Shown here: piece by piece, positions 4,869 to 29,644 of the stretch
Position numbering within the stretch: the first letter of the stretch is position 1
Layout of the letters: each line of letters opens with the position of its first letter
Source of the DNA: Acetobacteraceae bacterium
Lineage (GTDB): Bacteria > Pseudomonadota > Alphaproteobacteria > Acetobacterales > Acetobacteraceae
Direction: 5' to 3'
Assembly: GCA_965276785.1 (NCBI GenBank)
Contig: OZ255629.1
Coordinates: forward strand, 3,020,391 to 3,084,390
Length of the DNA: 64,000 nucleotides
The notes under the pieces: generated by a model
What the model was told of the DNA's origin: nothing
The model's database searches: none
The model's input: only the letters and a program-made list of their open reading frames with translations
Position numbers and translations under genes: made by a program

Positions 4869-6172
4869 GTGATCGCCTTCCGGCAGGCTGGTCCAAGCCG
4901 TGTCTCTCAGACATCGCGGAACTTCAACTTGGCAAGATGCTCGACCGGGCGAAGAACTTCACCGGCCAATCGATGCCGTATCTTCGGAACGTCAATATCC
5001 GATGGGGCTCGATCGAGACGGGTGATCTGTACAACATGCGGTTCACAGATGCGGAGGCGACGCGCTTCTCCGTTCGCGACGGTGACGTTTTAGTCTGTGA
5101 GGGAGGAGAGCCGGGGCGTTGCGCGATTTGGCAAGGAGGCCCCACCAGCCTGAAGTTCCAGAAGGCCATCCACCGCATCCGTCCAAGCGGGCGCGTCCTT
5201 TCCGGATGGATTGCATTGTTCCTCCGGCATGAGGCCCTGCATGACCGGCTAGCTGGCCACTTCACCGGAACAACGATCAAGCATCTACCAGCTCAAGCGC
5301 TGGCAGCTATCCGTCTGCCAGTCCCACCCCTGGCCGAGCAACGCCGGATCGTGGCGCGGATCGAGGCGCTGTCCGCCCGTACCCGCCGCGCCCGCGCCGA
5401 CCTCGAACGCATCGCGCCGCTGTGCCGCCGGCACCGTGACCGTACCCTGGCCAACGCATTCGACATCGGCAAGTCCACTCTCGTTGCAGAGTTGGCCTCG
5501 GCAGTCTTCGATGGTCCATTCGGCTCCAATCTCAAGTCGGATGACTACACCGCCAGTGGAACTCGAGTTGTTCGTCTAGAGAACATTGGCCACCTCCGCT
5601 TCATTGGTGACAAGGAGACCTTCATCACGGACGAGAAGGCCGACGGTCTCCGCCGACATCATCTCCACCCCGACGATGTTCTGTTCTCATCCTTCATAGA
5701 CAAGGAGGTTCGGGTATGCCTGTTCCCTCCTGGTCAGCCAACGAATGCAATCAACAAGGCCGACTGCTTCTGCGTCCGCGTTGATCCCAAGCGCGCCGAC
5801 CCGCGTTATGTCGCACTTCGCCTCGCCTCTCCGGTGACCTATGACGACATGCGGGATGCCGTCCACGGCGCGACGAGACCGCGGATCGGCATCACCGACC
5901 TGAAGCAATACGTCATCAACGCGCCGTCAGTCGCCGAACAGACGTCCATAGCGGACCGGGTCGAACGGCAGCACGGCATGTCCAACACCATCCATCGGGA
6001 GGCCACCCGTGCCCTCGCCCTCCTCGACCGCCTCGAACAGAGCATCCTCGCTCGCGCCTTCCGCGGTGAACTCGTGCCAGTTCACCTATCGGACACTGTG
6101 CCGGACGCCGCGCCGGTAAGTGCGTCGCCGACATCGGTCAGTCCGCGACGATTACAACGCGTCTCTGCTTAG
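4865..6172 (+). CDS. hsdS: Type I R-M specificity subunit (HsdS) with two target-recognition domains
   Basis: ATGA start/stop overlap with hsdM. N-terminus LPAGWSKPCLSDIAELQLGKMLD. The conserved spacer helices LPVPPLAEQRRIVARIEAL and APSVAEQTSIADRVE...LEQSILARAFRGELV are typical of HsdS. Confidence 0.9.
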   Translation: MSDRLPAGWSKPCLSDIAELQLGKMLDRAKNFTGQSMPYLRNVNIRWGSIETGDLYNMRFTDAEATRFSVRDGDVLVCEGGEPGRCAIWQGGPTSLKFQKAIHRIRPSGRVLSGWIALFLRHEALHDRLAGHFTGTTIKHLPAQALAAIRLPVPPLAEQRRIVARIEALSARTRRARADLERIAPLCRRHRDRTLANAFDIGKSTLVAELASAVFDGPFGSNLKSDDYTASGTRVVRLENIGHLRFIGDKETFITDEKADGLRRHHLHPDDVLFSSFIDKEVRVCLFPPGQPTNAINKADCFCVRVDPKRADPRYVALRLASPVTYDDMRDAVHGATRPRIGITDLKQYVINAPSVAEQTSIADRVERQHGMSNTIHREATRALALLDRLEQSILARAFRGELVPVHLSDTVPDAAPVSASPTSVSPRRLQRVSA

Positions 6173-6220
6173 CCGGGCGAGAACGATAGGGATCGCGCCT
6201 GTCCTGAGCTAGCAAGACAC

Positions 6221-7846
6221 ATGCTCAACCCTGATCCGAATGTGGAGTCGAACGCTCACGAGCGTTCCCGCGCCGGCCTCCAACATTGGCCCGACGAGAT
6301 CTGCTCCGACTATCCCGTTGCTTATGTCAGAATGACGACGCTGCGCGTCGATGACGATACCCACCTTCTGTTCGGCTGCGTGGAGTTGCTGCCCCGGGAG
6401 ATCGCGCCCCTGCCAAGCCACCAGGCGCCACGCCTGAACCTCCCGCGCGGCGCGACTGCGATGAGCAGCCTCACCGTGCTCGCCACGGACGCTGCGCTGC
6501 GCTGGTACGAGAGCGTTCTCGCCGGTGCTATCAGTATTCCAGGGACGACTGGACCGGCCATCGTCCGCACGGTCCGCCTCGCCCCGGAGCCGCGCCTTGG
6601 CGATCTGGTCGTAGCCAGGACGCCCACGGTTCCGGTGGCCTGGACCTCAGGACCGAGGATGCACCGCATGGTTCCCATGGAGCCACTGCCCGACGGGATG
6701 GCGGCATTGCTGACGCCGACATCAGGCAGTTCGGCGCTTCGCGACTGGATGCTCGAACATTGCTTCATTGACCTTGCCGCGCACCCGGACTGCGCAGGCG
6801 GGCTCGTTCTGCTCGCGGCCAATCCGATCATCCGGCATGTGTCGGAGTATCCCTTGCGCAAGCTCCCGGATGGCCGGGAGGTCCTCGGGATCAGGCTGGT
6901 TCCGCGTCTCGGCTGCTCCCTTGAGACAGTGAAGGTGCGCCTCTCCGAAATACGGCCTGATGGCATTGGACTTGCGCAAGAAGTCGCGCTTGACGCGTTT
7001 GGCGAAGCCGAGGTGACCCTGTCGCAAGAAGCCCTGGACACCGCGCTGGAGGTGAGTTGTTCCCGTCGCGGGTTGCTGCATGTGGCTCCGCACACGGGGT
7101 TTCTTCGATCGATCGGCTTCGAGATGAGACCGGTGCGCGCCACGATGTCCGTGGAGGTGCCCGCGAGGACCAAGACGCAGGCTGGAAGCCGCTACGATGT
7201 TCCGGTTGCGGACAGCCGGCTGAACGGTGCGGGCCAGATAGGCAGGCCCGCCGAGACCGGAGCCGCTTCCAGGCTCGCGTCGCTGCTCGCGGCTCGAGCC
7301 CAGCCGGTAGGCAGGATCGCGGAGCAGGTCGTGTTCCGCGATGATCGACCATTCGCCGTTACGTTCGTCCGCGGGCTTGTCGCGCACGCCCATTCGCGCG
7401 CGCTCTTCGTCGACCCCTACTTCAGCTTCGATGACATACGCGATTTTGCGCTATCAGCCTGGTCGGGATCGTGCATCGTGAGCGTTCTGACGAGCGTGCG
7501 CGTCGGTTGGACCAAGCGGGTCCAACACTTGGCCACCGAGCAGCCGCACGGCGACATGATGATTGCGGACCTCGAGCAGATCAATCGCATCCGGAATGGC
7601 AGCGGACTGTCTTCAGTCGAGGTCGGCATCATGGGAGAGCCGGGCATCCACGATCGGTTCTTGGTGGTGGACGACGCGGTCTGGCACTTCGGTGATTCAT
7701 TCAGATCACTGGGTGGCGCATTGTCCATGGCCTCCAAGGTCCGTGATATGCCGTCGCTCTTGCCCATGCTGCTCGACGCCCAGGCCAGGGCGACAGCGTT
7801 CGCCGAATATTGGGCGCGGGCGAACCATGGGAGTTCCGCAGCTTGA
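6221..7846 (+). CDS. Hypothetical protein (541 aa) with a C-terminal PLD-fold-like module carrying an HDR motif. First gene of the uncharacterised operon (ORF A).
   Basis: Long ORF with G/C-rich third positions, starting 49 nt after the hsdS stop. C-terminal ALFVDPYFSFDDI ... GIHDRFLVVDDAVWHFGDSFRSLG (HDR codons at 7649-7657). The start is uncertain; alternative ATGs are at 6332 and 6461. Confidence 0.6.
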   Translation: MLNPDPNVESNAHERSRAGLQHWPDEICSDYPVAYVRMTTLRVDDDTHLLFGCVELLPREIAPLPSHQAPRLNLPRGATAMSSLTVLATDAALRWYESVLAGAISIPGTTGPAIVRTVRLAPEPRLGDLVVARTPTVPVAWTSGPRMHRMVPMEPLPDGMAALLTPTSGSSALRDWMLEHCFIDLAAHPDCAGGLVLLAANPIIRHVSEYPLRKLPDGREVLGIRLVPRLGCSLETVKVRLSEIRPDGIGLAQEVALDAFGEAEVTLSQEALDTALEVSCSRRGLLHVAPHTGFLRSIGFEMRPVRATMSVEVPARTKTQAGSRYDVPVADSRLNGAGQIGRPAETGAASRLASLLAARAQPVGRIAEQVVFRDDRPFAVTFVRGLVAHAHSRALFVDPYFSFDDIRDFALSAWSGSCIVSVLTSVRVGWTKRVQHLATEQPHGDMMIADLEQINRIRNGSGLSSVEVGIMGEPGIHDRFLVVDDAVWHFGDSFRSLGGALSMASKVRDMPSLLPMLLDAQARATAFAEYWARANHGSSAA

Positions 7847-7989
7847 CCGCGGACGCGTCCGCCCTCGGCTCGATCGAGGCCTGGTTCATGCGGCACGAAG
7901 TCGACCTCGCGCTCGCGTCTTGCGAGGACAGGGAGATGGCCCCTGAGCAGCGGGCGAGCTGGACGCCCTGGTGCGGACCGCCAGCCTAA
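7843..7989 (+). CDS. Possible 48-codon ORF bridging ORF A and ORF B. It is either a separate small gene or the displaced 5' end of ORF B.
   Basis: It is not in the ORF track because it is under 60 aa. My own translation is LTADASALGSIEAWFMRHEVDLALASCEDREMAPEQRASWTPWCGPPA. Third positions are almost all G/C. The TTG overlaps the ORF A stop (TTGA), and an internal ATG sits at 7888. Its end overlaps the ORF B GTG by 19 nt. Confidence 0.3.
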   Translation: MTADASALGSIEAWFMRHEVDLALASCEDREMAPEQRASWTPWCGPPA

Positions 7990-9707
7990 GTGCGAATCGC
8001 CCCCAGCCCGACGCGCACGGCTCTGGTCCGTGGCCAGGCCACGCCGACGATGGAGCCGACACGCTCGTGGGCCGTGCCTTGGGCGCCTGCTTCGCGAGGG
8101 CGCCGGGCACGCGTTTGCTCGACGCCGCGGCTGGCATCCTGCGCTCGGATGCCGGCTGGCGCGCGTTCGCCGCCACCGCTGCGGATGAGGTGAGGTCGGA
8201 CTCGGCAAGGTTGGCCGCGTTGGAGACGTACCTGGAAGGGTTGGTCCACGCGTTCACCTGGGCGCCCCGTAGGATCGTCTATGCGCACCGGGACAACATG
8301 TGCGCGCTCGTGGAGCGGTTCCGTCAGCAGCCCCGGCTGGACGATGTTTGGCCGAGCCCACACTTCAGGATCATGCTCGTCAAGCATGAGCCGGCGTTCG
8401 ATGTCTTGAGGTTGAGCGACCCGGCCGGGTTCCTGAGAATGCTCGATCGTTTCCCGCATCCCGAACCCAGCCGGCACATCCTCGCATATTCGTCGGATCG
8501 CTTGAATATGGCCGAGCTGCTGGGCCTGCTGGAGCTCGCCAGACCATGCTTCGACGGTGGCGCTTGGCTGCCCTGGATCAAGGCTCCCGTCCTGGTCCTC
8601 GCGGCGGTCGAGCAGAACCTGGCGGCACTCGCTGATGGGGGAGACGATGATGGCTCCATTCCGTCGGAGGCGTTCGCGTCTGCCACTGCGAAGGCTGTGG
8701 GCGCGGTCTTGGAGAGGGCCGATGGGAATAATCTCGGCCACGGCTGGCTACAGCGATTGATGCATCGGGGTGCCTTCCGTGCTGGCCGTGGGGCGGCGAA
8801 CGACCGCCCGAGCATTTGGCTGCAGCACTTGATGCTCGAACTCGCCTCGGCATTGTCAACGAGGCAAGACGCCCTCCAGTGGATCCGGGCCGAACATGAA
8901 GTCTGGCGACGCGACCGCGCCGTGGCGGCCATCTCGGCGGCGGGATTGGGCGAGGTAAGCAGCCCGGCCGCGGCGGCGACTCTCATCCGGGAGGTCCTCG
9001 GTCTCGGTCTCCATACCACGGGCCAGGAGGATGGCTTTGGCGCTTCGTCGAATGCGGAGCGACGGCTCATGGCAGCAGTGGTTGGCCGCCATCCCGACCC
9101 CGCCGCATGGTTCGAGGAGCTGTGGCGCTCCATGGCGCCAATCCGGGACCGAGCCCGGCACACGACGACGTCGGCAGGCGGGCACGCCGGTGACGCCACC
9201 GTCATAGCGGTGACGTGGTTCATGTTCGGCTTGGACGCCGTCGACCCTCGCGCGCCGGCATACCGCGCACTCTGGAGGGCACTGCTTCGAGCGGTGCGGG
9301 AATGCGCCGTCGCACAGACCTCACCGCTCGCTCAACCTGCGTGGCGGGCACGCTACCAACTCCTGGCCGCGCATCTCGCACATCGGCTTGGGGATGCTGC
9401 GGACGAAGCGGCGGCCGACGACCTTCGGGAATTGCTTGAACCGTTGCTATACCTTGACATGACCCTGGCCGAGGTCGTGCACGTGCTGTTCGACGCGAGG
9501 GTCGCGCCGAGCGCAATCGCGATCGCTGCCGGTCAGACCGAACGTCTCGTGGGATTGTTGCGGCGCCTTGAGGTAGAACAGGCCTGGCGGGAAGAGAGGC
9601 AGCAGGAACAACTCGGCCGTCAGACCCGGTTCTCAGAGACGATCGCGCGGATGGCCGACGCTATCGAGGGTGCAGCCTCGCCACAGCATGACCCGGACGG
9701 AGGATGA
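7971..9707 (+). CDS. Hypothetical alpha-helical protein (578 aa), no recognisable motif (ORF B)
   Basis: Long ORF co-directional with ORF A and ORF C. GTG at 7971 is the first canonical start after an in-frame stop at 7944-7946. The composition is Leu/Ala/Arg-rich. Confidence 0.6.
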   Translation: MRTASLSANRPQPDAHGSGPWPGHADDGADTLVGRALGACFARAPGTRLLDAAAGILRSDAGWRAFAATAADEVRSDSARLAALETYLEGLVHAFTWAPRRIVYAHRDNMCALVERFRQQPRLDDVWPSPHFRIMLVKHEPAFDVLRLSDPAGFLRMLDRFPHPEPSRHILAYSSDRLNMAELLGLLELARPCFDGGAWLPWIKAPVLVLAAVEQNLAALADGGDDDGSIPSEAFASATAKAVGAVLERADGNNLGHGWLQRLMHRGAFRAGRGAANDRPSIWLQHLMLELASALSTRQDALQWIRAEHEVWRRDRAVAAISAAGLGEVSSPAAAATLIREVLGLGLHTTGQEDGFGASSNAERRLMAAVVGRHPDPAAWFEELWRSMAPIRDRARHTTTSAGGHAGDATVIAVTWFMFGLDAVDPRAPAYRALWRALLRAVRECAVAQTSPLAQPAWRARYQLLAAHLAHRLGDAADEAAADDLRELLEPLLYLDMTLAEVVHVLFDARVAPSAIAIAAGQTERLVGLLRRLEVEQAWREERQQEQLGRQTRFSETIARMADAIEGAASPQHDPDGG

Positions 9708-12700
9708 CGCGACGCCGATGAATTCCGACCCGGCGTTGCCCCCCCGTAGAGGCGCGAGCAGCCCGGCCTCAACCGGGCCGGCCGGGAGCCTGTTCGAGGC
9801 CCAGGTTGCCGCCAGCTACATGCTCGCCATGCTCGCCGGCGCTCCACCCCGCGGCCTGCCGAACGCGCTGGTAGAGAGCGTGCAGGTCCAAGCGGCACCC
9901 GAGGGCTTTCCGCTAGACGATGTCGTTGTGCACGCCCGCGACGCGGCCGGTAGCCCGGCGATACTGGAGATTCAGGTGAAGCGAACGGTGAGCTTCACAC
10001 ACTCCGACCCTGTCTTCGCAGACGTTGTGGGCCAGGCCGTCTCCGCCCGCGGAGACGGCGGTGAACAGGGCCATCATGAGTTGGCGGTGGCGCTGGCACG
10101 GTCGGCCCGAACTGCCTTGGGTCCATGCCATGATGTGCTGATGTGGGCGAGGAACACGACGGCGACCCAACTATTCGCCCGGCTCGCGCTGCGGGGCGTT
10201 GCCAATGAGCCTATGCGGACATTCGCGGAGACGTTCAGGTCCAACCTCGCCAAGGCGGGAGTACCCAGCGACGACGCCACGACCTGGGGGCTATTGCGGA
10301 GGTTCCAGATCCTCCCGTTCGACTTCGACGTGGCTGGCTCCGAATGGGAGCAACTCATGTTGGATCGGGCGCGCCGCTCACTGCACGACGAGGAGGCGCA
10401 TCTTGCCGGGTCGCTATGGTCGAGACTGGTCACCCACGCGCTCGCGCTGGCCACCACTGGCGGTTCAGTTACGACTGGAGAACTCAGGCAGGAGCTGCAT
10501 GAGTTCCGGTTCGCGGGCGAACGGCGCTACGCCGCCGCCCGCCGAGCCGTCGCCGAAGCAGCGCGGCACGCGTATGCTGACATCGACGATGACGTCGGCG
10601 GGGTGATCCTATCCAGGTCCGCCCACCTGGCCGGCCTGAGAGCGTCGATGGACCGCGGGCGCTATGTCGAGGTTCGAGGCGATGCCGGCGTCGGGAAGTC
10701 GGCGCTTCTGCGACACCTGGCTGCCCAATTATCGGCAGAGGCGCGGGTGATATTCCTCTCGCCGGGACGGACTACCCCGGGCGGTTGGCCCGCCATGCGC
10801 GCACAGATCGGGTTCTCCGACGGCGCGGTAGACCTGCTGTCTGACCTCACGGCCTGCGGCGGCGCCGTGCTCTTCCTGGACAACCTCGACAGGTTCAGCC
10901 CGGGCGAACAGACCACTGTCCGGGACCTCGTCCGCGAGGCGTCGACCGTGCCGGGCCTCTTCGTCGTCGCAAGCGCGAGGCGGGAGTTCGGCCTCGAGAC
11001 GCCTTCGTTCATCCCGGACGACGCGGTGGCACGGCTCGGGCGCGCGCCGCCGCTCGTCGTCGACGAGCTCGATGATCAGGACCTCGCCGAGTTGCGGGAC
11101 GGCAGTCCAGAGCTCCGAGGCCTGCTCGACGATCGGCACCCGGCATTGGCTATTACACGCAACCTTTTTCGGCTGGGCAGGCTGGCGAGGAGGCGCTCGC
11201 CAACGGGCGATCCGACGCTACCGCGGACCGAGGCGGAGATGGCCCGGCAGTGGTGGGACACGGGCGGCGACGGTTCCGACGACGGCCCTCTGAGGAGGAA
11301 CCGTCGCCGCCTGCTGCGCCGCCTCGCGATTGAGGTAATCGAAGGGGTCGACCCGCACGACGGGTCGGCCGAACCGTCGCATGTCGTGGATGCTCTTGTG
11401 GCAAGCCAGACGCTACGCGAGCCCAGTCACGACGTTATTGAGTTCCGGCATGACGTGCTGCGGCAGTGGGCGATCGCCAATGTGCTCATGCAGGAGCCGC
11501 AACTGGTCGGTCGTCTGGCGTTGGATCGGGCCCCATCAGCGATCGAGGCGCGGGGTCTCGAGCTGGCCGGCATCGGCAGCCTGGCGCCCGGCGACGGGTC
11601 GACGATCTTCGCCACGCTGCTGGCGGCGGTAAGCCGCGACTGCGCGCATCCAGCATGGCGACGTTCGGTGCTGCTCGCGCCGATGCGTTCAGAGAACCCC
11701 ACGGCGGCGCTCTTGGGAGCGGCGGACCTGCTCGCTGTAGATCGCGCCGCCATACTCAGGGAGTTGGTGCGCGTCGTGAGGGCCGTGGAGGTGACCAGCG
11801 CATCCGACCTGCTTCGTTCCGCGGGTATCGAACCCACTGCCGCCGCATCCGGCGTTGACGTGCCGGTGCTCAACCGCTGGCTACCGCTGGTCGAATACCT
11901 CGTCCAATTCGATGCGCTGCCTGCCGCGACGCTGCTTGAAGTCGTGCCATTCCTTGCGACCTGGTCAGCCTGCACGAGGGGTGCCGACCCCCTCAGTCCC
12001 GCGATCACACGCCGCATGTACGAGTGGCTCGACAGGTTCGAGGCGGGCACGCTCTTCGTCGGTGACGCAGGGTCGGCGGTGGGAGAGTGGCATCGGCGGC
12101 GTGCCCTGGGCAGCGAGATCAGATCCGCGTTCCTGCGTTTTAGCGACACGAGCCCGGACCTCGCCATCGCGTATATCGAGCGTCTTGCGGCCGGCCCCGC
12201 CGACGGACCGATCGTCAAGAGCGTGCTGACAGACAGCGGAAAGCTTGCGTTCGCGGCACCGGACCGGTTGGCCGCCCTCGCTGCACGCTCGATGGTGCCA
12301 CCAAGGGAACCGTCGGGCCGCACGGGACTCCGAGTGGCTCGGACATTCGGTAGCTGGGATTACGAGCTTTATCCTCCATCGCCCCGACAGGGCCCGTTTC
12401 TAAGCTTGTTGGAAGCTGCACCTGAGCACGGGTTGCGGCTGGTGCGCAGGATGGTGGACCATGCAATCCAGGACGACGACCCTGACGGCCAGCCGAACGC
12501 TATCGGCACAGTGCTGATGTTCGACGCCGGCCCGCGGTCATTCGACCATCCGAGATCGTACCGTTTGGCGCGGGAAGCCTCAGGCGGCCCGCTCGCCTCT
12601 GCGCTCATGGCCCTTGAGCAGTGGGGACATCTCCGCCTGGAGCGGAACGATGATGCCCGCGACGTCATTGCGGACGTGCTCGGAGACGGCGTGGCGCCCG

Positions 12701-14787
12701 CGGCCTACCTGCTCGTCGCAGTCGACCTGATCCTCTCACACTGGCCGTCCACCGCGGCGACGTCGGTCCCGTTTCTCGGCTGTCCGACCCTCCTCGCATG
12801 GGACCTCGAGCGGGCGGTCGTCGATGACGCTTCATCGGCCCGGGTGCCCGGATTGGAGGACATGAACCGCAGCGAGACCGATGCCGCGGATGACCTCGCG
12901 GCAAGGCCGTCGAGGAGGACCCGCCTTGACTACAGGCTCGACACCCTAGCGATAGAGGGTCCTGCTGTCGTTCGCGAAGAAGTCGAGCGCCGGCTGCGAT
13001 CCGCTGCGGAGCTGCTTGGGTCGCCGGAGCAAGATGCCACCCTTTCCTGCGCACCGATGATGGCGATGCACGCCCTGAACCGCATTGATCCCGCGAACTG
13101 GCGCAAGATGCATTTGCAGGACGGACGGGTAGGTTGGTCCTACGTCTCACCACAAGCAGAAGAGGAGCATTTCCGGCGGCTGCAGGACATCATGGCCGCC
13201 CGCAACGATGACGACCCACTGCTCTACTTGCCGATATCAGCGGCGCTCGACACCCATCCGGCCAAGCCAGGCGAATTGTCGGCGGCGTGCCTCCGATGGG
13301 CGTTTGGCAAGCTGCCCGGTGAAGAATCGCAGGCGGACCCGTCGCAGATGCGCAATGTCGCAATCGTAGGCGCAGCAATGCTGGTGGTCCGGCACGGAGA
13401 TCAAGGCACGATACTGTCCGCAGTCTCGTGGGCGAGGCAGGTGTTCGACTCGGCCGTCTTGATGCCCGACGATCAAGTCCATCGGACGCGGGCAGGCCTG
13501 GCGTACAACCCCGGCGGTATTGCATTCGCCGGGCGCGTCATGCTTCTTCGCGGTGGAGCTGCTGAGTGCGATGTTGAAGCGATACTGCGGCAGGCGGCCA
13601 GCGGCAACCCGGCCGGTGCCCGTGGTCTCGCGAAGACGGCGGTCGAGCTCGCCACCGCGGACGTGCGGCTCGTCAAGTCTGTCCTGCGCCTTGCCCTGGG
13701 CAGTTGTTGGACCAGTGCACGGGGCTCGTCCTCGAGGCGAGGTCGATTGGGCATGCGGTCCAACGAGGCGATCGCAAAGGCGGTCGGCTTGGAACTGAGT
13801 TGGTTGCGGAGCAATGGCGTCGAGCCACTCTGGCCCGGCTTCCCCATACGTGGTGCAGGTGGAAGTTCTCGAGGGGGAGCAGCTGCAACCCGCGCGGGCT
13901 TCGTCGATCAGCAGGCAGCGGCCCTGTGGCTCGATGCGATCCGCGAATTGTTCGACGCGGTAGTCCATCCATGGATGCGGGACTTGGCCGAGGCCTATGC
14001 CCCTTGGACATGGGAGGCGAACGGACAAGGCAGCGAGGATGAGGATTGCGGCGACCGCCCTGACGAGTGGAACGACGTTTTTCTCGAACTACTCGGACGC
14101 CTCGGGCCGGCGCTGCAGGCGCCTGACATGGACAGGTTGGCGCTGGAACCGCTCGTGGAACTGCCCGACAGGTCATTCCTGTGCGCCGTCCCGTCATTCC
14201 TCTACGGCGTCCACTACGCCCATTTCGGGGATGGCGGGCTCGCGGCCGCCGAGGCGGCACGGATCCGCGTCGCAGTGGCGCAACGCCTTGCCAAGTCGTC
14301 CGGTTGGCGCCGCATGGCGCGCGATCTGTCCGATGGTGTCGAGCACACGCTGGGGCCGGCGGTCGCAGCCCTCTTCTTCGCGCACCAGGGACCGCTTCAG
14401 CCCATCCAGACCTATCTCAACCCGGCGGGCATCGCGCGGCTCGACCCATTCCTGCCGCTGCTCATTGAGCTCGCGTCAGAGGCGCCCTGCCTCTACGTCG
14501 CGCGCCTGCTCCTGCAGTTGCTGTCTGTCCATGCCGAACCCCGCCATATCGCCGGGTTGCTGCGAGTCTCCCGGATATGGATCGAGAACCAGCCTCCGGA
14601 AGCTGCATTCTGGTTGGACTACGGAGTTGGAGGTTCGTTCTGCCGCTACATCCGCGATGCGCTCGCTGGGCCAGACGTAGACGCTGTCGTAACGGATACG
14701 ATCCGACGAGAACTGCAGGGGCAAGTTGCGGATCTGGTCCGGTTCGGGGTGTCCGAGGCTAGCCGGCTCGAGAAGGAACTGGCGTAG
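9688..14787 (+). CDS. Giant (~1,700 aa) putative nuclease-NTPase (ORF C). It has an N-terminal Mrr/Cap4-like PD-(D/E)xK module, a NACHT/STAND-like P-loop and a ~1,250-aa helical C-terminal region.
   Basis: PLDDVVVHARDAAGSPAILEIQVKR (9916-9981) fits a D...(E/Q)xK nuclease signature. Walker A GDAGVGKS is at 10678-10701 and Walker B-like VLFLDNLDRF at ~10870-10893. The start is ambiguous: ATG 9688 overlaps the ORF B stop by 20 nt, ATG 9718 lies 10 nt after it, and the track start is GTG 9670. Confidence 0.8.
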   Translation: MTRTEDDATPMNSDPALPPRRGASSPASTGPAGSLFEAQVAASYMLAMLAGAPPRGLPNALVESVQVQAAPEGFPLDDVVVHARDAAGSPAILEIQVKRTVSFTHSDPVFADVVGQAVSARGDGGEQGHHELAVALARSARTALGPCHDVLMWARNTTATQLFARLALRGVANEPMRTFAETFRSNLAKAGVPSDDATTWGLLRRFQILPFDFDVAGSEWEQLMLDRARRSLHDEEAHLAGSLWSRLVTHALALATTGGSVTTGELRQELHEFRFAGERRYAAARRAVAEAARHAYADIDDDVGGVILSRSAHLAGLRASMDRGRYVEVRGDAGVGKSALLRHLAAQLSAEARVIFLSPGRTTPGGWPAMRAQIGFSDGAVDLLSDLTACGGAVLFLDNLDRFSPGEQTTVRDLVREASTVPGLFVVASARREFGLETPSFIPDDAVARLGRAPPLVVDELDDQDLAELRDGSPELRGLLDDRHPALAITRNLFRLGRLARRRSPTGDPTLPRTEAEMARQWWDTGGDGSDDGPLRRNRRRLLRRLAIEVIEGVDPHDGSAEPSHVVDALVASQTLREPSHDVIEFRHDVLRQWAIANVLMQEPQLVGRLALDRAPSAIEARGLELAGIGSLAPGDGSTIFATLLAAVSRDCAHPAWRRSVLLAPMRSENPTAALLGAADLLAVDRAAILRELVRVVRAVEVTSASDLLRSAGIEPTAAASGVDVPVLNRWLPLVEYLVQFDALPAATLLEVVPFLATWSACTRGADPLSPAITRRMYEWLDRFEAGTLFVGDAGSAVGEWHRRRALGSEIRSAFLRFSDTSPDLAIAYIERLAAGPADGPIVKSVLTDSGKLAFAAPDRLAALAARSMVPPREPSGRTGLRVARTFGSWDYELYPPSPRQGPFLSLLEAAPEHGLRLVRRMVDHAIQDDDPDGQPNAIGTVLMFDAGPRSFDHPRSYRLAREASGGPLASALMALEQWGHLRLERNDDARDVIADVLGDGVAPAAYLLVAVDLILSHWPSTAATSVPFLGCPTLLAWDLERAVVDDASSARVPGLEDMNRSETDAADDLAARPSRRTRLDYRLDTLAIEGPAVVREEVERRLRSAAELLGSPEQDATLSCAPMMAMHALNRIDPANWRKMHLQDGRVGWSYVSPQAEEEHFRRLQDIMAARNDDDPLLYLPISAALDTHPAKPGELSAACLRWAFGKLPGEESQADPSQMRNVAIVGAAMLVVRHGDQGTILSAVSWARQVFDSAVLMPDDQVHRTRAGLAYNPGGIAFAGRVMLLRGGAAECDVEAILRQAASGNPAGARGLAKTAVELATADVRLVKSVLRLALGSCWTSARGSSSRRGRLGMRSNEAIAKAVGLELSWLRSNGVEPLWPGFPIRGAGGSSRGGAAATRAGFVDQQAAALWLDAIRELFDAVVHPWMRDLAEAYAPWTWEANGQGSEDEDCGDRPDEWNDVFLELLGRLGPALQAPDMDRLALEPLVELPDRSFLCAVPSFLYGVHYAHFGDGGLAAAEAARIRVAVAQRLAKSSGWRRMARDLSDGVEHTLGPAVAALFFAHQGPLQPIQTYLNPAGIARLDPFLPLLIELASEAPCLYVARLLLQLLSVHAEPRHIAGLLRVSRIWIENQPPEAAFWLDYGVGGSFCRYIRDALAGPDVDAVVTDTIRRELQGQVADLVRFGVSEASRLEKELA

Positions 14788-14834: not shown

Positions 14835-15719
14835 TTAGGGGAGGCTCAATGTTCTGCTGCACGACCTCTCGACCCGGCCATTCTGCAGGGTATTCAGCTC
14901 GATGGTGTGCGCCCATCCGTCGTATCGGGCCCGCGTGCCCCATAGCGCTGGGTCCTTCCAGTCCGGCGCGCCCTCGCGAACGCCGCCATCGTTGATCGTC
15001 TCGGCGCAGAGCTTGCCGATGGAACGCGACATGACGAGCCTGCCACCCTCGACCACGCCCACCTTGGCCGGGCAGACCGCGTAATCCCGCGTCGACGCCG
15101 CGCTGTTCGGCCCGTCGTCGCAGGCGGTGGCGCCAAGTTGCGCGATCGACACGATGATGGTCCGCGGGCCGTCGGGGAACGAGACGGAGTAGGTCGGCAA
15201 CGTGCCGCCTTGGCCGTCCGGGGGATTGTCGATCTCGTTGCGCCACAGGGCGGCCTCGGCATCGGGGTTCCGCTCGGCCTTGGTATGATAGCGGAGCGTC
15301 AGGAACTGCCATCCGACCTGCGGGTGGCCGGGCGGGACCTCCGGGCCCCGGGGCTCGTGCGACGCCGGCGGAAACGACGCCACGGTCCCGGCAGCGGCAG
15401 TGGCATCGGCGCCGACGATGTGGCCACGGGACGCCATGCAGTCGGCGAAGACGGCATCATACGATGCTTGGATCTGGCTATTGTTGGCCGCGATCTGTTG
15501 CGGGGTCGCGCCGGGCCCGTTGAGCCTGTCCGCAACGGGCTGGAGCTGCCGGTCGGTCAGCCTCCCGCAGCTCGTCCGGTCGTCATCGAAGGCGGCCTGC
15601 GACTTACCCGGCCCCGGCTCCACGTGCACGGTCGGTTTGATGACCGCACACGACGCGGACATGAGCGCCAGCAGCAACGCAGCCGCGCGCGGCGCTCCCC
15701 CGCGGCAAGCGCGACGCAT
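14835..15719 (-). CDS. Probable exported protein or lipoprotein (294 aa)
   Basis: An internal ATG at 15719 in ORF 14835..16301 gives MRRACRGGAPRAAALLLALMSASCAVIK, a signal peptide ending in Cys. The sequence upstream in the same ORF is R/G-rich junk. Confidence 0.65.
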   Translation of the reverse strand: MRRACRGGAPRAAALLLALMSASCAVIKPTVHVEPGPGKSQAAFDDDRTSCGRLTDRQLQPVADRLNGPGATPQQIAANNSQIQASYDAVFADCMASRGHIVGADATAAAGTVASFPPASHEPRGPEVPPGHPQVGWQFLTLRYHTKAERNPDAEAALWRNEIDNPPDGQGGTLPTYSVSFPDGPRTIIVSIAQLGATACDDGPNSAASTRDYAVCPAKVGVVEGGRLVMSRSIGKLCAETINDGGVREGAPDWKDPALWGTRARYDGWAHTIELNTLQNGRVERSCSRTLSLP

Positions 15720-15775
15720 GCTCCCTCGCCTGGGGATTCCGTGATCGCCACCCGGAACATGCGTCGAGGACGCGT

Positions 15776-16339
15776 TCACTCCCCGCCCTGCCCCAGCCAC
15801 ACCAACTCCTCCGGCGGCGCTTCCTCCAACATCAGCAAGGTCAGCGACGCCACGAATACCGCATCGTGCTCGGCCTGCGATTGCCCGGGGTCGGACCCGG
15901 CCCGACCGATCTCGATTGCCATCCCCATCGCGGCCATCGCCATCGCGGCCACGGGCATCGATGTCCACAGCCGCTCGGCAGCGACCAGTGCGCAGATGAT
16001 GGGGGTGCCGCGCCTCACCTCGTCCGGCAACGTCGCCCGCGCATCCGGATGAGCGACGACGATCGCGTCTGGCGGCTGCGGCGCCCACACCGCCCGGTCG
16101 AGACGACCGCCGGCGATGAACGGCAGCGACGCCTCCATGCGGCCGGAGGCCCGGGCATCGTATCGCGCGGACATGGGCCGGCCCAGCCCCGAGCCGAAGA
16201 TCGGGTCCGTGCGCAGGTCGATCCGGCCCACGCTGCGGATCGAGCCGGCCAAGCGCCCGTCCAGCTCGAAGCTCATGACCCGCAACCTGGTCTTGGGCCA
16301 CAGGCCTCGCCGCACGCTCACGGCGGCGGTCTCAATCAC
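15776..16339 (-). CDS. Hypothetical protein (~187 aa)
   Basis: GTG at 16339 overlaps the stop of the upstream 751-aa gene (GTGATTGA). An alternative ATG is at 16276 (MSFELDGRL). Confidence 0.45.
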   Translation of the reverse strand: MIETAAVSVRRGLWPKTRLRVMSFELDGRLAGSIRSVGRIDLRTDPIFGSGLGRPMSARYDARASGRMEASLPFIAGGRLDRAVWAPQPPDAIVVAHPDARATLPDEVRRGTPIICALVAAERLWTSMPVAAMAMAAMGMAIEIGRAGSDPGQSQAEHDAVFVASLTLLMLEEAPPEELVWLGQGGE

Positions 16340-18587
16340 CGGCCGCCTGCCTGCGGAACGCCTTCTTGGCGGCGTCGCAGGCCTGGGCATCGACCATGTC
16401 CCGGCGCGCCTGCTCGGCCAGCAGGCCGCCGGTCAAGGGCAGGTCCTCGAACAGCGCGAGGGCGACGGCGCTGACCCTCGCGGCCTGGCCGCCCCGGTAG
16501 GCCTCCTCTACCGGCATGGCCAGGCATTCGATGGTCTCCAGCGGTCCGTCGAGCCCGGGGAGGTTCGGCAAGCCGGTGACCTCCAGGTCGACGATCCGGT
16601 CGCCGCGCGTGCTCTCCGCGAGCGCGCCCTCGATCGCGGGCGCCGTCCGCCCGAACGCGGCGACGCGCAGGCTCCGCGCCGTCCCCAAGCCCAGGATCCG
16701 CGTGGTGTGCACGAACGTCACCTGTAGCCCATCGACTGCCGCCGCCCTGACCAGCTCTGTGGGATCGACCTCCCGCAACTCGCCCTGCTTGGACCGGACC
16801 GCCAGGTGCTGGCCGGCGGCGAACATGCCGGGCACGTTCGCCGCGGCCACGGCCGACGCCACGCGCCGCTCGATGGTCTGGGCGTGCCCGTCCCGGCACG
16901 CCGCCTCGATCCATGATGCCGCCTCCATCGCACCCAAGGACGGCTTGGCGGCGGTCGCCTCACGCCATCGCCTGGATTGCGCCCAGTTGCGCTCTGGGCC
17001 GATGACGATCGCCATCACGTCGTCGACCGTCCGGCGGTAATGGTCGATGCACATGCGTGTGGCGGTCGCCGGCTCGATGCCGGTTGCGACGGCGAAGGAA
17101 TGCTCGATCCGGGCGACGCCCCCGGCCGCCGCGGCCTTGCGGAGGGGCCCCATGGCTGAATCGTAGGCGGCCTGGAACGCGGCGGGGTAGGCGGACACGG
17201 CGTATGGGTCCTCGCGCCCGTCGATCCACGCCGTCCCGCCCGGGGCGGCCGGGAACCAGTGTCTGGCCTCCCATCCTTCCAGGGCGTCCGGCTCGGGGCG
17301 GCTGGCCGCGACCGCCGCCGCCAGGTGCTTGTCCATCACCGCCTGCAGCACGCCCGTCGCGGCCGTCAGGCAATCGCGTCGCAGGCCGGCGGACTGATCC
17401 GCGTCGAGGCCCGCCAATGGGAAGGCGCCGGCGTCGTAGTGGTTGACCGGGGCCGGGAAGTGCGGGGCCAGCGTCCCGGCGCAAGCCGCCGTCGGCGTGC
17501 GGACGATGCGGGCATCATCGACCCTGCCGTTCCGGACGCGGTCGGCTTCGGCATCGAAGGTCGCGACCACGGTGTGGCGGATGCGCTCCAACATGACCGG
17601 GATCTGCCGCGCGGCCGCCTCCATGCACGCCTGCCCCAATCCCCGCGCCACCTGCGTCGATGCGGGAAGCCCAGCCAGCGGGCCGGCGTAGGGTCCCAGG
17701 AGGCCGCGGCAGTCGATGTCCGGAGGGAGCACGACGTCGGTGGCGGCACGCCGTGCCAGCAACTCCGCCAACAGCGCCCGGAGCTTCGGACCCGCCGCCT
17801 CGAACCTTGCCTTGAGCCGATCCTGGAACGCCGCATCGAGCGGCTCGAACCGGAGCGGGGCGAGCCGCTCCCCCGGGAGGACGGAACGTGCCAGCTGCAG
17901 GCCGGCGGTATCGCCCGCCCTATCCATGACGGGTGCCGGCGGGCTGCCCAGCGAGGGCAGGTCCGGGATGAGGGCGAGGTCCGCCAGGCGCCGGACGAGG
18001 ACGGCGATGAATACATCGCGGTCCTCGATGCAGTGCCTCCACAAGGCCGTCGCCAGGTCCGGCATAGGGGAACCCGCCGCTTGCGCGATCCATCGGCAGT
18101 AGGTGACGGGTGACGCCGCCACCTGGGGGAGCACGATCGACCCGGCCGCCTCGACCGCCGCCGTGAGCTCGGCGAAGCGCGCATCGAGCTCGGCCTGCAG
18201 GAGCGGGGCCGCCGCCCGCACCTTCGCCAGGATCGCCGCCGCGTTAGCGGCCGCGTCCGGGCTGGTCTCCGGGGGGAGCGGCGGCCGGTCCGGTGGCGGA
18301 TGCAGGGTGCCCGGGGGCGAGTAGAAGTGGAAGAGCGCCGCCTGATCCAGCGTCGGGTCCGACGCCAGCATCGATCTCGTGTAGGCGCGCGTCCGGTCCT
18401 GCCCGGTTATGACGTGCGGCAACTCGTCATCGGCCTCGCGGTGGACGGACGGCGCGATCGGCTGGCCCGGCTGCCGCCCCCAAGAAGCATCCACCCCGGG
18501 GTTGCCGAGCACGAACTCGGCCGACAGCGCGGGCAGCGGCATGGCTCCGACGAGCGCGCCCAGCGCGGCACGCCTCAGCCATCGCAT
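16332..18587 (-). CDS. Large secreted protein of unknown function (751 aa)
   Basis: ATG at 18587 gives MRWLRRAALGALVGAMPLPALSAEF, a Sec-type signal peptide. The upstream part of track ORF 16332..18851 looks non-coding. Confidence 0.7.
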   Translation of the reverse strand: MRWLRRAALGALVGAMPLPALSAEFVLGNPGVDASWGRQPGQPIAPSVHREADDELPHVITGQDRTRAYTRSMLASDPTLDQAALFHFYSPPGTLHPPPDRPPLPPETSPDAAANAAAILAKVRAAAPLLQAELDARFAELTAAVEAAGSIVLPQVAASPVTYCRWIAQAAGSPMPDLATALWRHCIEDRDVFIAVLVRRLADLALIPDLPSLGSPPAPVMDRAGDTAGLQLARSVLPGERLAPLRFEPLDAAFQDRLKARFEAAGPKLRALLAELLARRAATDVVLPPDIDCRGLLGPYAGPLAGLPASTQVARGLGQACMEAAARQIPVMLERIRHTVVATFDAEADRVRNGRVDDARIVRTPTAACAGTLAPHFPAPVNHYDAGAFPLAGLDADQSAGLRRDCLTAATGVLQAVMDKHLAAAVAASRPEPDALEGWEARHWFPAAPGGTAWIDGREDPYAVSAYPAAFQAAYDSAMGPLRKAAAAGGVARIEHSFAVATGIEPATATRMCIDHYRRTVDDVMAIVIGPERNWAQSRRWREATAAKPSLGAMEAASWIEAACRDGHAQTIERRVASAVAAANVPGMFAAGQHLAVRSKQGELREVDPTELVRAAAVDGLQVTFVHTTRILGLGTARSLRVAAFGRTAPAIEGALAESTRGDRIVDLEVTGLPNLPGLDGPLETIECLAMPVEEAYRGGQAARVSAVALALFEDLPLTGGLLAEQARRDMVDAQACDAAKKAFRRQAAGD

Positions 18588-18841
18588 CCCGTGAGATCCG
18601 ATGACCCTGGTGCTCGATGACTGCGGGACGCCCGCGCGGATCGGCGCGGCCGGGAGGAGCGCATCCGCGCGGGAACGCGCCCCTCCGCCACACCTAGCCG
18701 CACCATACGGGACCTTTCCCCGCTGGACCGGACCCCGCCAAGCCTCGCCGGGTCCGGCTTGGTAGCGGCCATCGCACACCCGAGGCAACTCGCACGAGGC
18801 GCGGGTCGGAACGGCCGCCGATGGACCGGTCGCGAACGCCG

Positions 18842-19438
18842 TCACGGGCACTGCCCGGCGGTCGCGGGCATGGGTTCGGCCCAGAACCTACCGAACTTCG
18901 GCCGCCAGTCACCGAGACCGATCTGCTCGCCGGCGACGGCAACGAACCTGCGGATCTCCTGGGGGTCCAGGATCGAAGGCAGGTAATCGACCACCAGCTC
19001 CGCCGACCAATCCGTGAACTTCGGCCTCGTGCGCATGATCCGGCTGCCGCCGACGCGCACCCCGACCCGCAGGCGGAAGCGACCATCCGCCCACAGCGCG
19101 GCCGGGTCCGATGGACCATCGTAGCGGAGGCGGAGGTCATCCCTCACGACCAGCCCGGCGCGCGCCTTCGCAGCGCGCCTTTCCTGGCCCGCCGCTCTGG
19201 TCAGCGACGCCTCCACCATCTCGCCCGGGATGCAGGGCGAGCCGGAGCTGGTGTACATGCTTCCCAGGAACTCGAGCTCGGCCAGACGAAGGTGGTCCGC
19301 CTCGGTCTTCCGCCGCCGGCCCGCGACCTCCGCTATCGCCCGGGCGTGCTCATCCAACGGATCCGCGAGGCGACCGGAATGCATGAGCAGGGGTGCGGCG
19401 GACGTGATCTCGAAGCGCAATGACCGGTAGGCGCTCAT
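18842..19438 (-). CDS. Hypothetical protein (198 aa) with a C-terminal glycine-rich loop
   Basis: ATG at 19438 gives MSAYRSLRFEITSAAPLLMHSGRL. The C-terminus is GEQIGLGDWRPKFGRFWAE. The ORF is well-formed and overlaps the 3' end of the HNH ORF by 89 nt. Confidence 0.6.
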   Translation of the reverse strand: MSAYRSLRFEITSAAPLLMHSGRLADPLDEHARAIAEVAGRRRKTEADHLRLAELEFLGSMYTSSGSPCIPGEMVEASLTRAAGQERRAAKARAGLVVRDDLRLRYDGPSDPAALWADGRFRLRVGVRVGGSRIMRTRPKFTDWSAELVVDYLPSILDPQEIRRFVAVAGEQIGLGDWRPKFGRFWAEPMPATAGQCP

Positions 19439-19890: not shown

Positions 19891-20157
19891 ATGGACCTAT
19901 GTGGACTGGTTGGGCGGAACGTACGGCGTGAACGCCTGGCGGCCAGGATGACCCAAGAGGACTTGGCCCATCGCACCGGATGGGACCGCACCTACATCAG
20001 CGACATTGAGCGCGGCATCCGCAATCCGTCGGTGCGCTTGCTGGAGGATGTCGCCACCGCCCTGGGGCTCCACCCCGCGCTGCTCCTGTTCGAGGAGCAA
20101 GAAGCAGCCATGGTTCGCGCGGCGCTACGGGACACACCGGACAGGGATCCCCCCTAG
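19891..20157 (+). CDS. XRE-family helix-turn-helix transcriptional regulator (88 aa)
   Basis: VGRNVRRERLAARMTQEDLAHRTGWDRTYISDIERGIRNPSVRLLEDVATALG is the canonical Cro/C1 HTH_3 pattern. Confidence 0.88.
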   Translation: MDLCGLVGRNVRRERLAARMTQEDLAHRTGWDRTYISDIERGIRNPSVRLLEDVATALGLHPALLLFEEQEAAMVRAALRDTPDRDPP

Positions 20158-22121: not shown

Positions 22122-22265
22122 AGTGCTCACACGTTGCGCACGCGAAGTTACCCGGCAGCGAGGCGCACGCCAACTTGAGACGACCAGGCTTGTGAACGGC
22201 AACCTCGAAGCGTCAGGGCATTGGTCATGAGGGCCCCTGGCTGCAGATCGGTCGGGAGTGCGGGT

Positions 22266-22305
22266 CACGCGGCCCCCGCCAGGACGTCCTGGCGGGGGCC
22301 GCGTG
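22266..22305. repeat. Perfect 40-bp palindrome centred on GACGTC
   Basis: I checked 22266-22285 (cacgcggcccccgccaggac) against 22286-22305 (gtcctggcgggggccgcgtg) base by base. G-U and G-C pairs extend the structure to 22262-22309. Confidence 0.95.
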
Positions 22306-25923: not shown

Positions 25924-26249
25924 GGACGTGCCGGCAAGGTGGATATGCGAGTGGTGTTTGGCCTCGGTCACAGTTGACCTCCATCGTATGGCTCCCTTGG
26001 GAGCCGGGACCCTACGTCTCACGACGCTGAACATGCCCAGCTTACCTTGGAGTTCGCTGAGTCTCAACGTGGTTGGCGTCGATCAAGCGGCGGCTACGCC
26101 GACCTGGTCGTGACGCAAGAGTTGCCTGGTCGGCCCTCGATCTGGCGCAGGATTTCGGCGGTATCGACTCGTGCCCCGTGTTCCTCTTACGTTCTGAAAT
26201 GCCCAATGCCGTCCCACCCTATGATCGCGCTATCGCACTGGCCTGCACC

Positions 26250-29520: not shown

Positions 29521-29644
29521 CGGACCCTCCCTGGGGGACGCATTCCCCCTTCCGGATGGTCGGTGGCCGACCCCCCACCGGTCGCGGTTGGCCAAGCGCC
29601 CGCGCCATGGTCTGTTGTCGGAACGAAGGAACAGGCGTGGATCG

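Follow-up and report, generated by a model that had tools for sequence, protein, structure and literature searches.

The window analysed here, 64,000 nucleotides of an Acetobacteraceae genome (contig OZ255629.1), contains a long reading frame, ORF C, preceded by two large genes, A and B. The locus raises the question of what ORF C does, and whether it acts on its own or as one component of a three-gene system. Our analysis indicates that ORF C is likely to work alone as a pattern-recognition protein of the antiviral STAND (Avs) type, divergently related to Avs4 and with a predicted Cap4-type nuclease effector. All positions given below are those of the window, and all features lie on the + strand. 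ORF C (9688..14787) is a reading frame of 1,699 aa that opens with the ATG at 9688 and closes with the stop codon 14785-14787; its longest form starts at GTG 9670. It is a coding gene rather than a chance ORF in high-GC DNA, because it has 471 database homologues, the majority of them full length (about 1,700 aa, 37-45% identity), and full-length relatives at 35-45% identity in at least 145 of about 185,000 species genomes. These relatives are patchily distributed over many phyla, among them Alpha- and Betaproteobacteria, Acidobacteriota and Nitrospirota. A search with the N-terminal domain returned about 400 representatives at E<=1e-30 (50%-identity clusters, fragments included), and the best 150 of these are mostly proteins of about 1,700 aa. 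The reading frame called in the first-pass annotation is real, and the strings quoted there are all present in the translation: GSLFEAQVAASYMLAML (aa 33-49), PLDDVVVHARDAAGSPAILEIQVKR (aa 75-99), GDAGVGKS (aa 331-338) and VLFLDNLDRF (aa 394-403). The NCBIfam search of ORF C gave ABC-ATPase P-loop noise only, the comparison of the whole protein with the PDB, before a family profile was used, gave P-loop noise only, and scanning 5.8-15.4 kb for promoters and terminators yielded nothing useful. The evidence on the identity of the protein comes from residue conservation across 50 diverse sequences, structure prediction, fold search and profile search. Conservation of the motif residues is far above chance, with D77, D78, Q96, K98, G331, G334-S338, D398 and R431 invariant in the 50 sequences.

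Residues 1-30 of ORF C are disordered and show no conservation. They are followed by a predicted Cap4-like PD-(D/E)xK nuclease domain (aa ~31-300; 9778..10587), which the first-pass annotation had proposed as a Cap4/Mrr-type nuclease, along with a structure prediction of the N-terminal region. The AF2 model of aa 31-300 returned a confident nuclease fold (pLDDT 84.9, pTM 0.77), in which an alpha-beta-beta-beta-alpha-beta core spans aa 34-137 (H34-50, E61-67, E78-84, E90-98, H108-123, E129-137) and leads into a helical extension. In the Foldseek search with this model, the best 15 matches were all to Cap4, to LmuA or to 8zue_A, a Hachiman entry. Among them were AbCap4 (6wam/6wan/6vm6, E 4e-6 to 4e-5), LmuA (9hr5, E 7e-5), MoCap4 (6vm5, E 1e-4) and 8zue_A (E 3.5e-4), all at probability 1.0. 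Over the Cap4, LmuA and HamA matches as a whole, E-values range from 4e-6 to 5e-4 across 227-273 aligned columns, with an identity of 8-14% and TM-scores of about 0.4, which are moderate (0.41-0.44). In the model the predicted catalytic residues D77, D78, E94, Q96 and K98 (PLDD...EIQVK; 9916..9981) fall on two strands: strand 2 begins with D77 and D78, and strand 3 carries E94, Q96 and K98. The conserved acidic position where strand 2 begins and the (D/E/Q)xK of strand 3 are both present. The spacing D78-x17-Q96-x-K98 equals that of D41/E59/K61 in the HerA-associated DUF4297 nuclease, a triad that has been mutationally validated (bioRxiv 10.1101/2024.10.24.620088).

Q96 occupies the canonical (D/E)xK position, and it is plausible, from the sequence, that catalysis would require D78 and E94 as metal ligands. 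The presence of Q instead of D/E would also suit a degenerate, non-catalytic PD-(D/E)xK fold that serves for DNA binding or oligomerisation only, with the protein working in a different way, for instance through sequestration or signalling. The same can be said of the lack of a sequence-profile match to any nuclease family: in 40 members searched against Pfam at E<=10, the N-terminal domain matched no nuclease family, not even DUF4297, and a profile search of the PDB with this domain gave no relevant match. However, none of D77, D78, Q96 and K98 varies among the 50 sequences, and E94 is kept in at least 90% of them, in a domain whose overall identity is only about 50%, a pattern typical of active sites, and the closest structures are all active nucleases. 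A loss of catalysis is therefore very improbable. The reservation in the first-pass annotation, that the N-terminus might turn out to have no nuclease fold and no conserved catalytic residues, is answered by the predicted fold and by these invariant residues, and we favour an active, Cap4-type nuclease as the effector.

Directly downstream of the nuclease, a STAND-type NTPase (aa ~306-610; 10603..11517) comprises P-loop nucleotide-binding, helical and winged-helix domains, as judged from the secondary structure of the model, Foldseek and weak Pfam matches. In the Walker A motif GDAGVGKS (aa 331-338; 10678..10701), G331, G334, V335, G336, K337 and S338 are invariant. In the Walker B motif VLFLDNLD (aa 394-401; 10867..10890), which the model places on a strand, F396 and D398 are invariant, and L400 is conserved at >=90% in the 50 sequences and at >=97% in a set of 112. 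Walker A, Walker B with its following acidic residue (LFLDNLD, 395-401) and R431 are thus all present. The invariant R431 (10978..10980) closes strand 4 in a T-A-R context (model strand E119-126, aa 424-431, ending at R431) and is a candidate sensor-1 arginine by analogy with the STAND "TSR" motif. Directly past the winged-helix beta-hairpin lies F-R-H-D-V (aa 586-590; 11443..11457), in which F586, H588, D589 and V590 are invariant; the hairpin and the helix after it span aa 576-602 (E271-275/E278-281 and H284-297 in model numbering). By analogy this motif is a candidate equivalent of the "MHD" histidine of STAND/NLR proteins, and its function would be equivalent too. The order of nucleotide-binding, helical and winged-helix domains followed by a large sensor is seen in ORF C in both the model and the Foldseek alignment to Avs4, which runs through the NTPase and the sensor. 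The P-loop STAND-type NTPase of the first-pass annotation is borne out by these observations, but its "NACHT-like" label appears too specific. On ORF C the Pfam STAND models all score below their gathering cut-offs (AAA_16 25.9 vs 32.6; nSTAND5 19.6 vs 34; NACHT 16.5 vs 26.7), with nSTAND1 as a further weak match. Across 19 members the four models are found in 3-9 of 19 each, sub-threshold yet consistent (AAA_16 9/19, best E 2.5e-6; nSTAND5 8/19, 3.7e-6; NACHT 4/19, 4.4e-3), and NACHT is the weakest match both on ORF C and among the 19 members.

The remainder of the protein (aa ~611-1699, ~1,090 aa; 11518..14784) is predicted to be an all-alpha, Avs4-like C-terminal sensor, on the basis of profile, Foldseek and PADLOC comparisons and a model that extends to aa 1500. 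In the model of aa 306-1500, built from an alignment of 19 sequences (pTM 0.55), the tail is almost wholly alpha-helical. The first-pass annotation described it as helical and repeat-like; the helical, sensor-like character stands, whereas a tail of sequence repeats was rejected, as a self-comparison with hhalign found no internal repeats (best off-diagonal E 0.6, probability 0.1%). Conservation also extends throughout its length, so the tail is not a variable repeat array. The Foldseek search with the same model singled out EcAvs4, with 8dgf_B at E 1.8e-19 over 1,302 columns and 8dgf_A at E 8.7e-19 over about 1,300 columns (both at probability 1.0) and the next match at E 7e-5. This alignment spans the NTPase and the sensor, at a moderate TM-score of 0.45. 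The profile search proposed in the first-pass annotation gave a concordant result: the ORF C family profile aligns with 8DGF (E 2e-9) in three segments that follow the same order, among them 625-764 and 863-1048, which pair with Avs4 residues 527-671 and 760-952. Identity to EcAvs4 is about 13%. The PADLOC Avs4 HMM does not match the window protein; it matches the relatives P0087 (E 5e-21, aa 290-1086), P0113 (1e-7), P0008 (8e-6) and P0030 (3e-5). The sensor of ORF C is thus predicted to have an Avs4-type fold. Structure prediction, the fold and profile searches and the conserved residues all support the Avs/STAND-like architecture claimed at the outset, and Avs4 is the only strong relative.

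The genomic context agrees with a role in defence. Within the window, ORF C lies in a defence island that encodes a Type I R-M system, PDC-S39, PD-T4-7 and a PDC-S37/Hhe-like helicase-nuclease, plus integrases. It shares with Avs proteins in general an effector, an NTPase and a sensor in one polypeptide, no obligatory partner, and association with a defence island. Many STAND clades have non-defence functions (PMC13581612), and the database names of the homologues are generic ("ATP-binding protein" or "hypothetical protein", with "NACHT domain-containing protein" for one homologue in one source), so that a regulatory or housekeeping role might be considered. Such a role is extremely improbable, given that among the structural matches this type of nuclease effector is confined to defence systems, that ORF C itself sits in a defence island, and that the family is patchy yet present in many phyla. 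The neighbourhoods of the homologues are, moreover, variable and rich in mobile-element genes, with toxin-antitoxin and transposon genes close by. We therefore regard an antiviral function as likely for ORF C.

The two upstream genes led the first-pass annotation to place ORF C in an operon with two large partners, in contrast to the single-gene Avs systems. Neighbour A (541 aa; 6221..7846) has a VPA1262-family N-terminal domain (NCBIfam NF040700 at 1e-29), a PLD/HKD-like HxR...D motif at its C-terminus and a weak PADLOC match to PDC-S05; one of its distant relatives, P0161, has PF13091 PLDc_2. Neighbour B (578 aa; 7971..9707) starts at GTG 7971, a database entry begins at 8067, and it has no recognisable domain, with no match in Pfam, PADLOC, NCBIfam or the PDB; profiles of A and of B gave no PDB match for either. 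The physical clustering is real. A, B and ORF C lie on one strand, the stop of B at 9707 falls 20 nt inside ORF C (the overlap is 4 nt in the related locus L003), and the A-B-C order is kept in each close relative sampled (L003, L005/L010, L011 and L022). These four distinct loci form a close clade with 82-92% identity in the best segment, in MAGs labelled Acetobacteraceae and Caulobacteraceae. Some Avs loci, such as the KpAvs2 operon, do have accessory genes (PMC11564622), and a three-gene system could be envisaged in which A-B modulates or licenses the STAND sensor, or adds a second effector to it, in the close clade. However, in L006, L007/L008 and L009 (45-68% identity) the A-B pair is present while a C homologue is not, and A and B are missing from every C locus examined outside the close clade, in many phyla. 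For B only 15 homologues were found; it always adjoins an A homologue, and adjoins C in the close clade only. Since A-B and C are each found alone elsewhere, their linkage is confined to one shallow clade, which is what would be expected of two modules juxtaposed in a defence island. Among 85 homologue loci there was no recurrent neighbour besides the close-clade B, the largest other cluster being 3 loci, and the more distant loci (34-45% identity) likewise had none.

An obligate three-gene operon was rejected, as this comparative context contradicts it, and a functional three-gene system in the close clade is distinctly improbable. In most genomes A does not belong to the ORF C system, A-B is a separable neighbouring module, and the operon with two partners, although physically present here, is no feature of the family. 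The contrast drawn with single-gene Avs systems does not hold family-wide, since the loci of distant homologues have no conserved neighbour. Nevertheless, the tight overlap of B and C is such that A and B may be functionally linked to ORF C in the close clade. One unlikely scenario is that in this clade an Avs4-like sensor was captured downstream of, and became translationally coupled to, an independent A-B pair, giving a composite system of three genes whose partners alter how it is triggered or supply a second effector, and/or that the very divergent sensor detects a phage protein that is not the portal. The A-B pair, a small, uncharacterised and defence-island-associated two-gene module, is the more open lead.

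For ORF C acting on its own, we infer a mechanism by comparison with characterised Avs proteins of the Cap4 and Mrr types (SeAvs3, EcAvs4 and SeAvs7). In the uninfected cell, ORF C would be an autoinhibited, ADP-bound monomer. During infection a conserved phage structural protein would bind the helical sensor, and the portal would be the leading candidate for this trigger because the sensor is Avs4-like. At the divergence observed, the trigger need not be the portal, as Avs sensors of similar fold can differ in target, and it may be another protein. Binding of the trigger would open the NTPase, and the subsequent binding of ATP would drive oligomerisation, probably to a tetramer. This would join the N-terminal nuclease domains into an active assembly, which would degrade DNA indiscriminately and abort the infection. 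Precedent comes from Avs3 and Avs4, which act as non-specific DNA endonucleases when activated by phage (PMC11564622). The present results provide a functional assignment for a widespread family of ~1,700-aa proteins whose members are largely missed by standard defence finders. They carry the Avs4 sensor fold into further phyla, paired with a Cap4-type effector, and make the family a candidate for testing whether portal recognition is conserved at about 13% identity. As at least 90 defence-associated STAND families have already been mapped, the advance is one of annotation and not of principle.

Among known systems, the best PADLOC sequence match of ORF C (E 1.5e-9) and of its relatives (down to 4e-17) is PDC-M54A, a profile of similar length (1,621-1,657 positions). 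Nuclease and NTPase both lie within the matched region, which ends at about aa 400-660; therefore the sensor differs. PDC-M54 is a multi-gene candidate, for which we found no literature, and its other components were not found at ORF C. The nuclease domains that match aa 31-300 best in structure, from CBASS Cap4, Lamassu LmuA and Hachiman HamA, all belong to defence nucleases activated by oligomerisation; their activators are SAVED, SMC or helicase partners, whereas in ORF C this place is taken by a fused STAND NTPase. The only strong relative, by sequence profile and by fold, is EcAvs4 (AVAST type 4), a single-gene system whose structure, PDB 8DGF, is bound to the portal of phage PhiV-1. The two proteins are alike in length (1,699 aa vs 1,587 aa) and collinear, with an N-terminal nuclease effector, a STAND NTPase and a large all-alpha sensor. 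They differ in the N-terminal region, which is about 100 aa longer in ORF C, and in the effector: that of EcAvs4 is described as Mrr-like, whereas the best matches of the ORF C effector are Cap4-type and 8DGF is absent from the Foldseek matches of the nuclease model. SeAvs3 and SeAvs7 share with ORF C an N-terminal Cap4-type PD-(D/E)xK nuclease joined to a STAND NTPase, and their structures are absent from the top Foldseek matches of both ORF C models. Their sensors, which are TPR-like, differ from that of ORF C; the target reported for Avs3 is the terminase, and that for Avs7 is the major capsid protein with EF-Tu. In both SeAvs3 and SeAvs7, binding of target and ATP leads the Cap4 domains to form tetramers (PMC13581612), and this target- and ATP-driven tetramerisation, by which the nuclease is assembled, is the best mechanistic model for ORF C.

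We propose that ORF C (window 9688-14787, + strand) is likely an antiviral STAND (Avs)-type sensor-nuclease; established for this protein are its domain folds (from models), invariant predicted catalytic and nucleotide-binding residues, an Avs4-like sensor, single-gene behaviour and a defence-island setting. Its longest form starts with GTG 9670 and ends with the stop codon at 14787 (1,705 codons), and the ATG at 9688 used in the first-pass annotation gives 1,699 aa; all of the peptide strings quoted there are found in the translation. ORF C is a genuine gene and not an artefact of high GC (about 68% in the window), because 471 homologues, almost all of full length (1,690-1,740 aa), came out of a word-indexed search of 5.8 billion proteins, and relatives turned up in 145 genomes when each species was scanned through a single genome. 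Identity is 37-45% for most homologues and 78-92% for a handful, and relatives occur in Alpha-, Beta- and Gammaproteobacteria, Acidobacteriota, Nitrospirota, Planctomycetota, Myxococcota, Actinomycetota, Bacteroidota, Spirochaetia and Binatia. Conservation is high over the full length of ORF C: the frequency of the commonest residue, averaged per 50-aa block, is 0.56-0.78, with slightly larger values over the first 600 aa. Residues 1 to ~30 are disordered and lack conservation, therefore the choice among the starts at 9670, 9688 and 9718 is immaterial.

A Cap4/Mrr-type nuclease had been suspected at the N-terminus. Pfam gave no match to this domain in 40 family members at E<=10, and a profile search of PDB found nothing relevant. 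The AlphaFold2 model of aa 1-315 (alignment of 40 sequences; pLDDT 84.9, pTM 0.77) is confident and comprises a helix (34-50), strands at 61-67, 78-84 and 90-98, a helix (108-123), a strand (129-137) and then a helical extension, with a predicted PD-(D/E)xK core. Foldseek aligned this model with 15 PDB entries at E<=1e-3 (probability 1.0; 227-273 columns; moderate query-normalised TM of 0.39-0.44), all of them Cap4-type defence nucleases, including Acinetobacter Cap4 (6wam, 6wan, 6vm6; E 4e-6 to 4e-5), Lamassu LmuA (9hr5; E 7e-5), Moraxella Cap4 (6vm5) and a Hachiman entry (8zue_A; E 3.5e-4). In the model, strand 2 begins with D77 and D78, and strand 3 carries E94-I-Q96-V-K98; D77, D78, Q96 and K98 are invariant across 50 diverse homologues, with E94 at least 90% conserved. 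The spacing of D78-x17-Q96-x-K98 in ORF C is identical to that in the HerA-associated DUF4297 nuclease, where mutagenesis showed D41/E59/K61 to be the catalytic triad, likened by its authors to that of Cap4 (bioRxiv 10.1101/2024.10.24.620088). The sole oddity of the predicted active site is a Q in place of the D or E of (D/E)xK. Therefore, the modelled fold, the structural matches and the invariant, equivalently spaced residues bear out the nuclease call, for which "Cap4-type" is the better-fitting name. A profile of the domain, searched against 1.84 billion entries, retrieved 2,689 cluster representatives at E<=1e-3, of which 401 reached E<=1e-30; the best 150 are mostly ~1,700-aa proteins or their fragments. 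Five homologue clusters (P0058, P0084, P0085, P0090 and P0100; 1,868-1,893 aa) carry an extra ~155-175 aa before the Cap4-like domain; this segment has Pfam GNAT acetyltransferase matches in P0058, P0084 and P0085, P0090 is called GNAT by its source and P0100 carries no GNAT annotation. ORF C of the window lacks the segment.

The Walker A motif GDAGVGKS lies at 331-338, its G and G-V-G-K-S being invariant, and is followed by LFLDNLD at 395-401 (D398 invariant) and T-A-R431 (R431 invariant). A model of aa 306-1500 (19 sequences; pLDDT 80.0, pTM 0.55) places GDAGVGKS, LFLDNLD and R431 on a five-stranded alpha/beta domain, after which come a helical domain and a helix-hairpin-helix winged-helix unit. 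Beyond the winged-helix hairpin stands the invariant F586-R-H588-D589-V590, a candidate counterpart of the NLR "MHD" histidine. Pfam matches to ORF C were exclusively of STAND or generic P-loop type and below the gathering threshold: AAA_16 (25.9 bits, cut-off 32.6), nSTAND5 (19.6, cut-off 34) and NACHT (16.5, cut-off 26.7), matched by 9, 8 and 4 of 19 family members, respectively, with nSTAND1 matched by 3. The scores and counts therefore support a STAND NTPase, but do not establish the NACHT type to which the first-pass annotation had likened it.

The full-length profile of 50 homologues gave exactly one informative match in PDB, 8dgf_A (E 2e-9), from the structure of EcAvs4 bound to the portal of phage PhiV-1. 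Three collinear stretches were aligned: 291-334 (P-loop) with Avs4 207-250, 625-764 with 527-671, and 863-1048 with 760-952. Foldseek with the 306-1500 model likewise returned 8dgf_B (E 1.8e-19) and 8dgf_A (E 8.7e-19) over 1,302-1,331 columns (TMq 0.44-0.45; 13% identity); the next best matches, karyopherins and other generic alpha-solenoids and ORC4, began at 7e-5, and Avs5 stood at 2.9e-3. The PADLOC Avs4 HMM has no match to ORF C of the window, although it matches relatives in clusters P0087 (5e-21, aa 290-1086), P0113 (1e-7), P0008 (8e-6) and P0030 (3e-5). The top PADLOC match of ORF C is the candidate defence model PDC-M54A (1.5e-9), with an alignment confined to the nuclease and NTPase; Avs2 matches are weaker, and the Avs1, Avs3, Avs5 and bNACHT models gave none. 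The tail, previously described as helical and repeat-like, is nearly all helical in the model, but internal sequence repeats were not found. Some plasmid-borne relatives have only aa 36-523 or 36-668 in common with ORF C (H11-H15, e.g. NC_008761.1 36106-38040). Their sequences suggest that one nuclease-NTPase cassette may be joined to differing sensors, and those sharing only aa 36-668 fit the modular sensor exchange typical of Avs proteins.

ORF C is preceded, on its own strand, by a Type I restriction-modification locus (hsdR 44-3373, then hsdM, and hsdS ending at 6172), gene A (6221-7846; 541 aa; NCBIfam VPA1262 N-terminal domain, 1e-29; weak PDC-S05 match) and gene B (7971-9707; 578 aa; no matches and no recognisable domain), whose stop overlaps the ORF C start. 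Genes A and B had been read as two large operon partners that set ORF C apart from single-gene Avs systems. The A-B-C order does recur in close relatives, at loci L003 (82%), L005/L010 (92%), L011 (87%) and L022 (92%), but neither A nor B was found in the flanks of the ORF C homologue loci examined outside this close clade. The databases hold 31 homologues of gene A and 15 of gene B, and the pair (window 6221-9707, +) occurs at 45-68% identity without any ORF C homologue at L006 (8376-11908), L007/L008 (L007 3210-6735) and L009 (2475-6065). When 1,188 flanking ORFs were clustered all against all, no neighbour proved common to more than 3-4 loci, the 4-locus clusters being the close clade itself. 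ORF C is therefore a single-gene system, and genes A and B form a separate module that happens to sit immediately upstream in one shallow clade. A functional coupling of ORF C to A-B specific to this clade, or a trigger other than the phage portal, is unlikely.

The A-B pair lies in defence-rich regions, with a 1,717-aa DUF4011 helicase adjoining it in L006 and L009, and is a candidate small-family, uncharacterised defence system. The C-terminal motif IHDRFLVVDD...GDSFRS of gene A is invariant and resembles a PLD/HKD variant (HxR...D); Pfam PLDc_2 is present in one distant relative. In more distant homologues of gene B, such as P0127 (635 aa), the protein has ~50 further N-terminal residues and the gene overlaps the gene A stop by 4 nt. 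Within window 7842-7971, an in-frame stop at ~7944 precedes the first possible gene B start, GTG 7971 (A-B gap 124 nt), and therefore the gene B N-terminus is shortened in the close clade.

Window 1-45617 as a whole looks like a mobile or integrative defence island. Besides the Type I restriction-modification locus and ORF C, it holds a PDC-S39-like DUF7380/DUF4209 protein (20154-22409, -), a PD-T4-7-like protein (24922-26067, -), a 2,037-aa helicase-nuclease (29492-35605, +; DUF4011/AAA_11/AAA_12/MTES_1575/DUF3320) matching PDC-S37 and Hhe, a Prim-Pol (38813-40681, -) and two tyrosine integrases (40683-42857, - and 44283-45617, -); no tRNA genes were found in the 64-kb window. Two putative long ORFs convergent to ORF C (14835-16301, -, 488 aa; 16332-18851, -, 839 aa) had no Pfam, PADLOC or NCBIfam matches. 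At L004, a divergent 1,524-aa protein with a weak AAA_16 match (5169-9743, -) lies immediately upstream of the homologue of ORF C and may be a second STAND protein.

Avs3 and Avs4 are non-specific DNA endonucleases activated by phage (PMC11564622). In the apo state SeAvs3 and SeAvs7 keep their Cap4 domains sequestered; once the target has bound and ADP has given way to ATP, these domains form an active tetramer (PMC13581612). By analogy with these characterised proteins, we propose that the ORF C sensor would bind a conserved structural protein of the phage, with the portal as a tentative first candidate. Binding would drive ATP-dependent oligomerisation, through which the Cap4-like nuclease domains would assemble and degrade DNA, resulting in abortive infection.

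The STAND landscape has already been described as comprising 198 defence-associated clades and at least 90 families, with sensors falling into 684 clusters (Lee et al. 2026, PMC13581612); therefore the ORF C family is one more divergent STAND family, in which both effector and sensor fold are of known types, and represents no new principle. Public names of its homologues are "hypothetical protein", "ATP-binding protein" and, once, "NACHT domain-containing protein", and full-length homologues on rhizobial and Pseudomonas megaplasmids bear no annotation beyond "hypothetical" or "ATP-binding protein". As these annotations and the PADLOC Avs4 HMM miss ORF C, the Avs-type assignment is useful for annotating the family. 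The original observation is confirmed, and its interpretation is supported apart from the operon distinction and the NACHT specificity. The modelled sensor has the Avs4 fold, and its sequence relationship is borderline, as the family profile matches 8dgf and the PADLOC HMM matches relatives only; ORF C is a candidate member of Avs4 proper. EcAvs4 is the nearest known relative of the ORF C NTPase and sensor, whereas SeAvs3 and SeAvs7 are nearest in effector type and activation logic.
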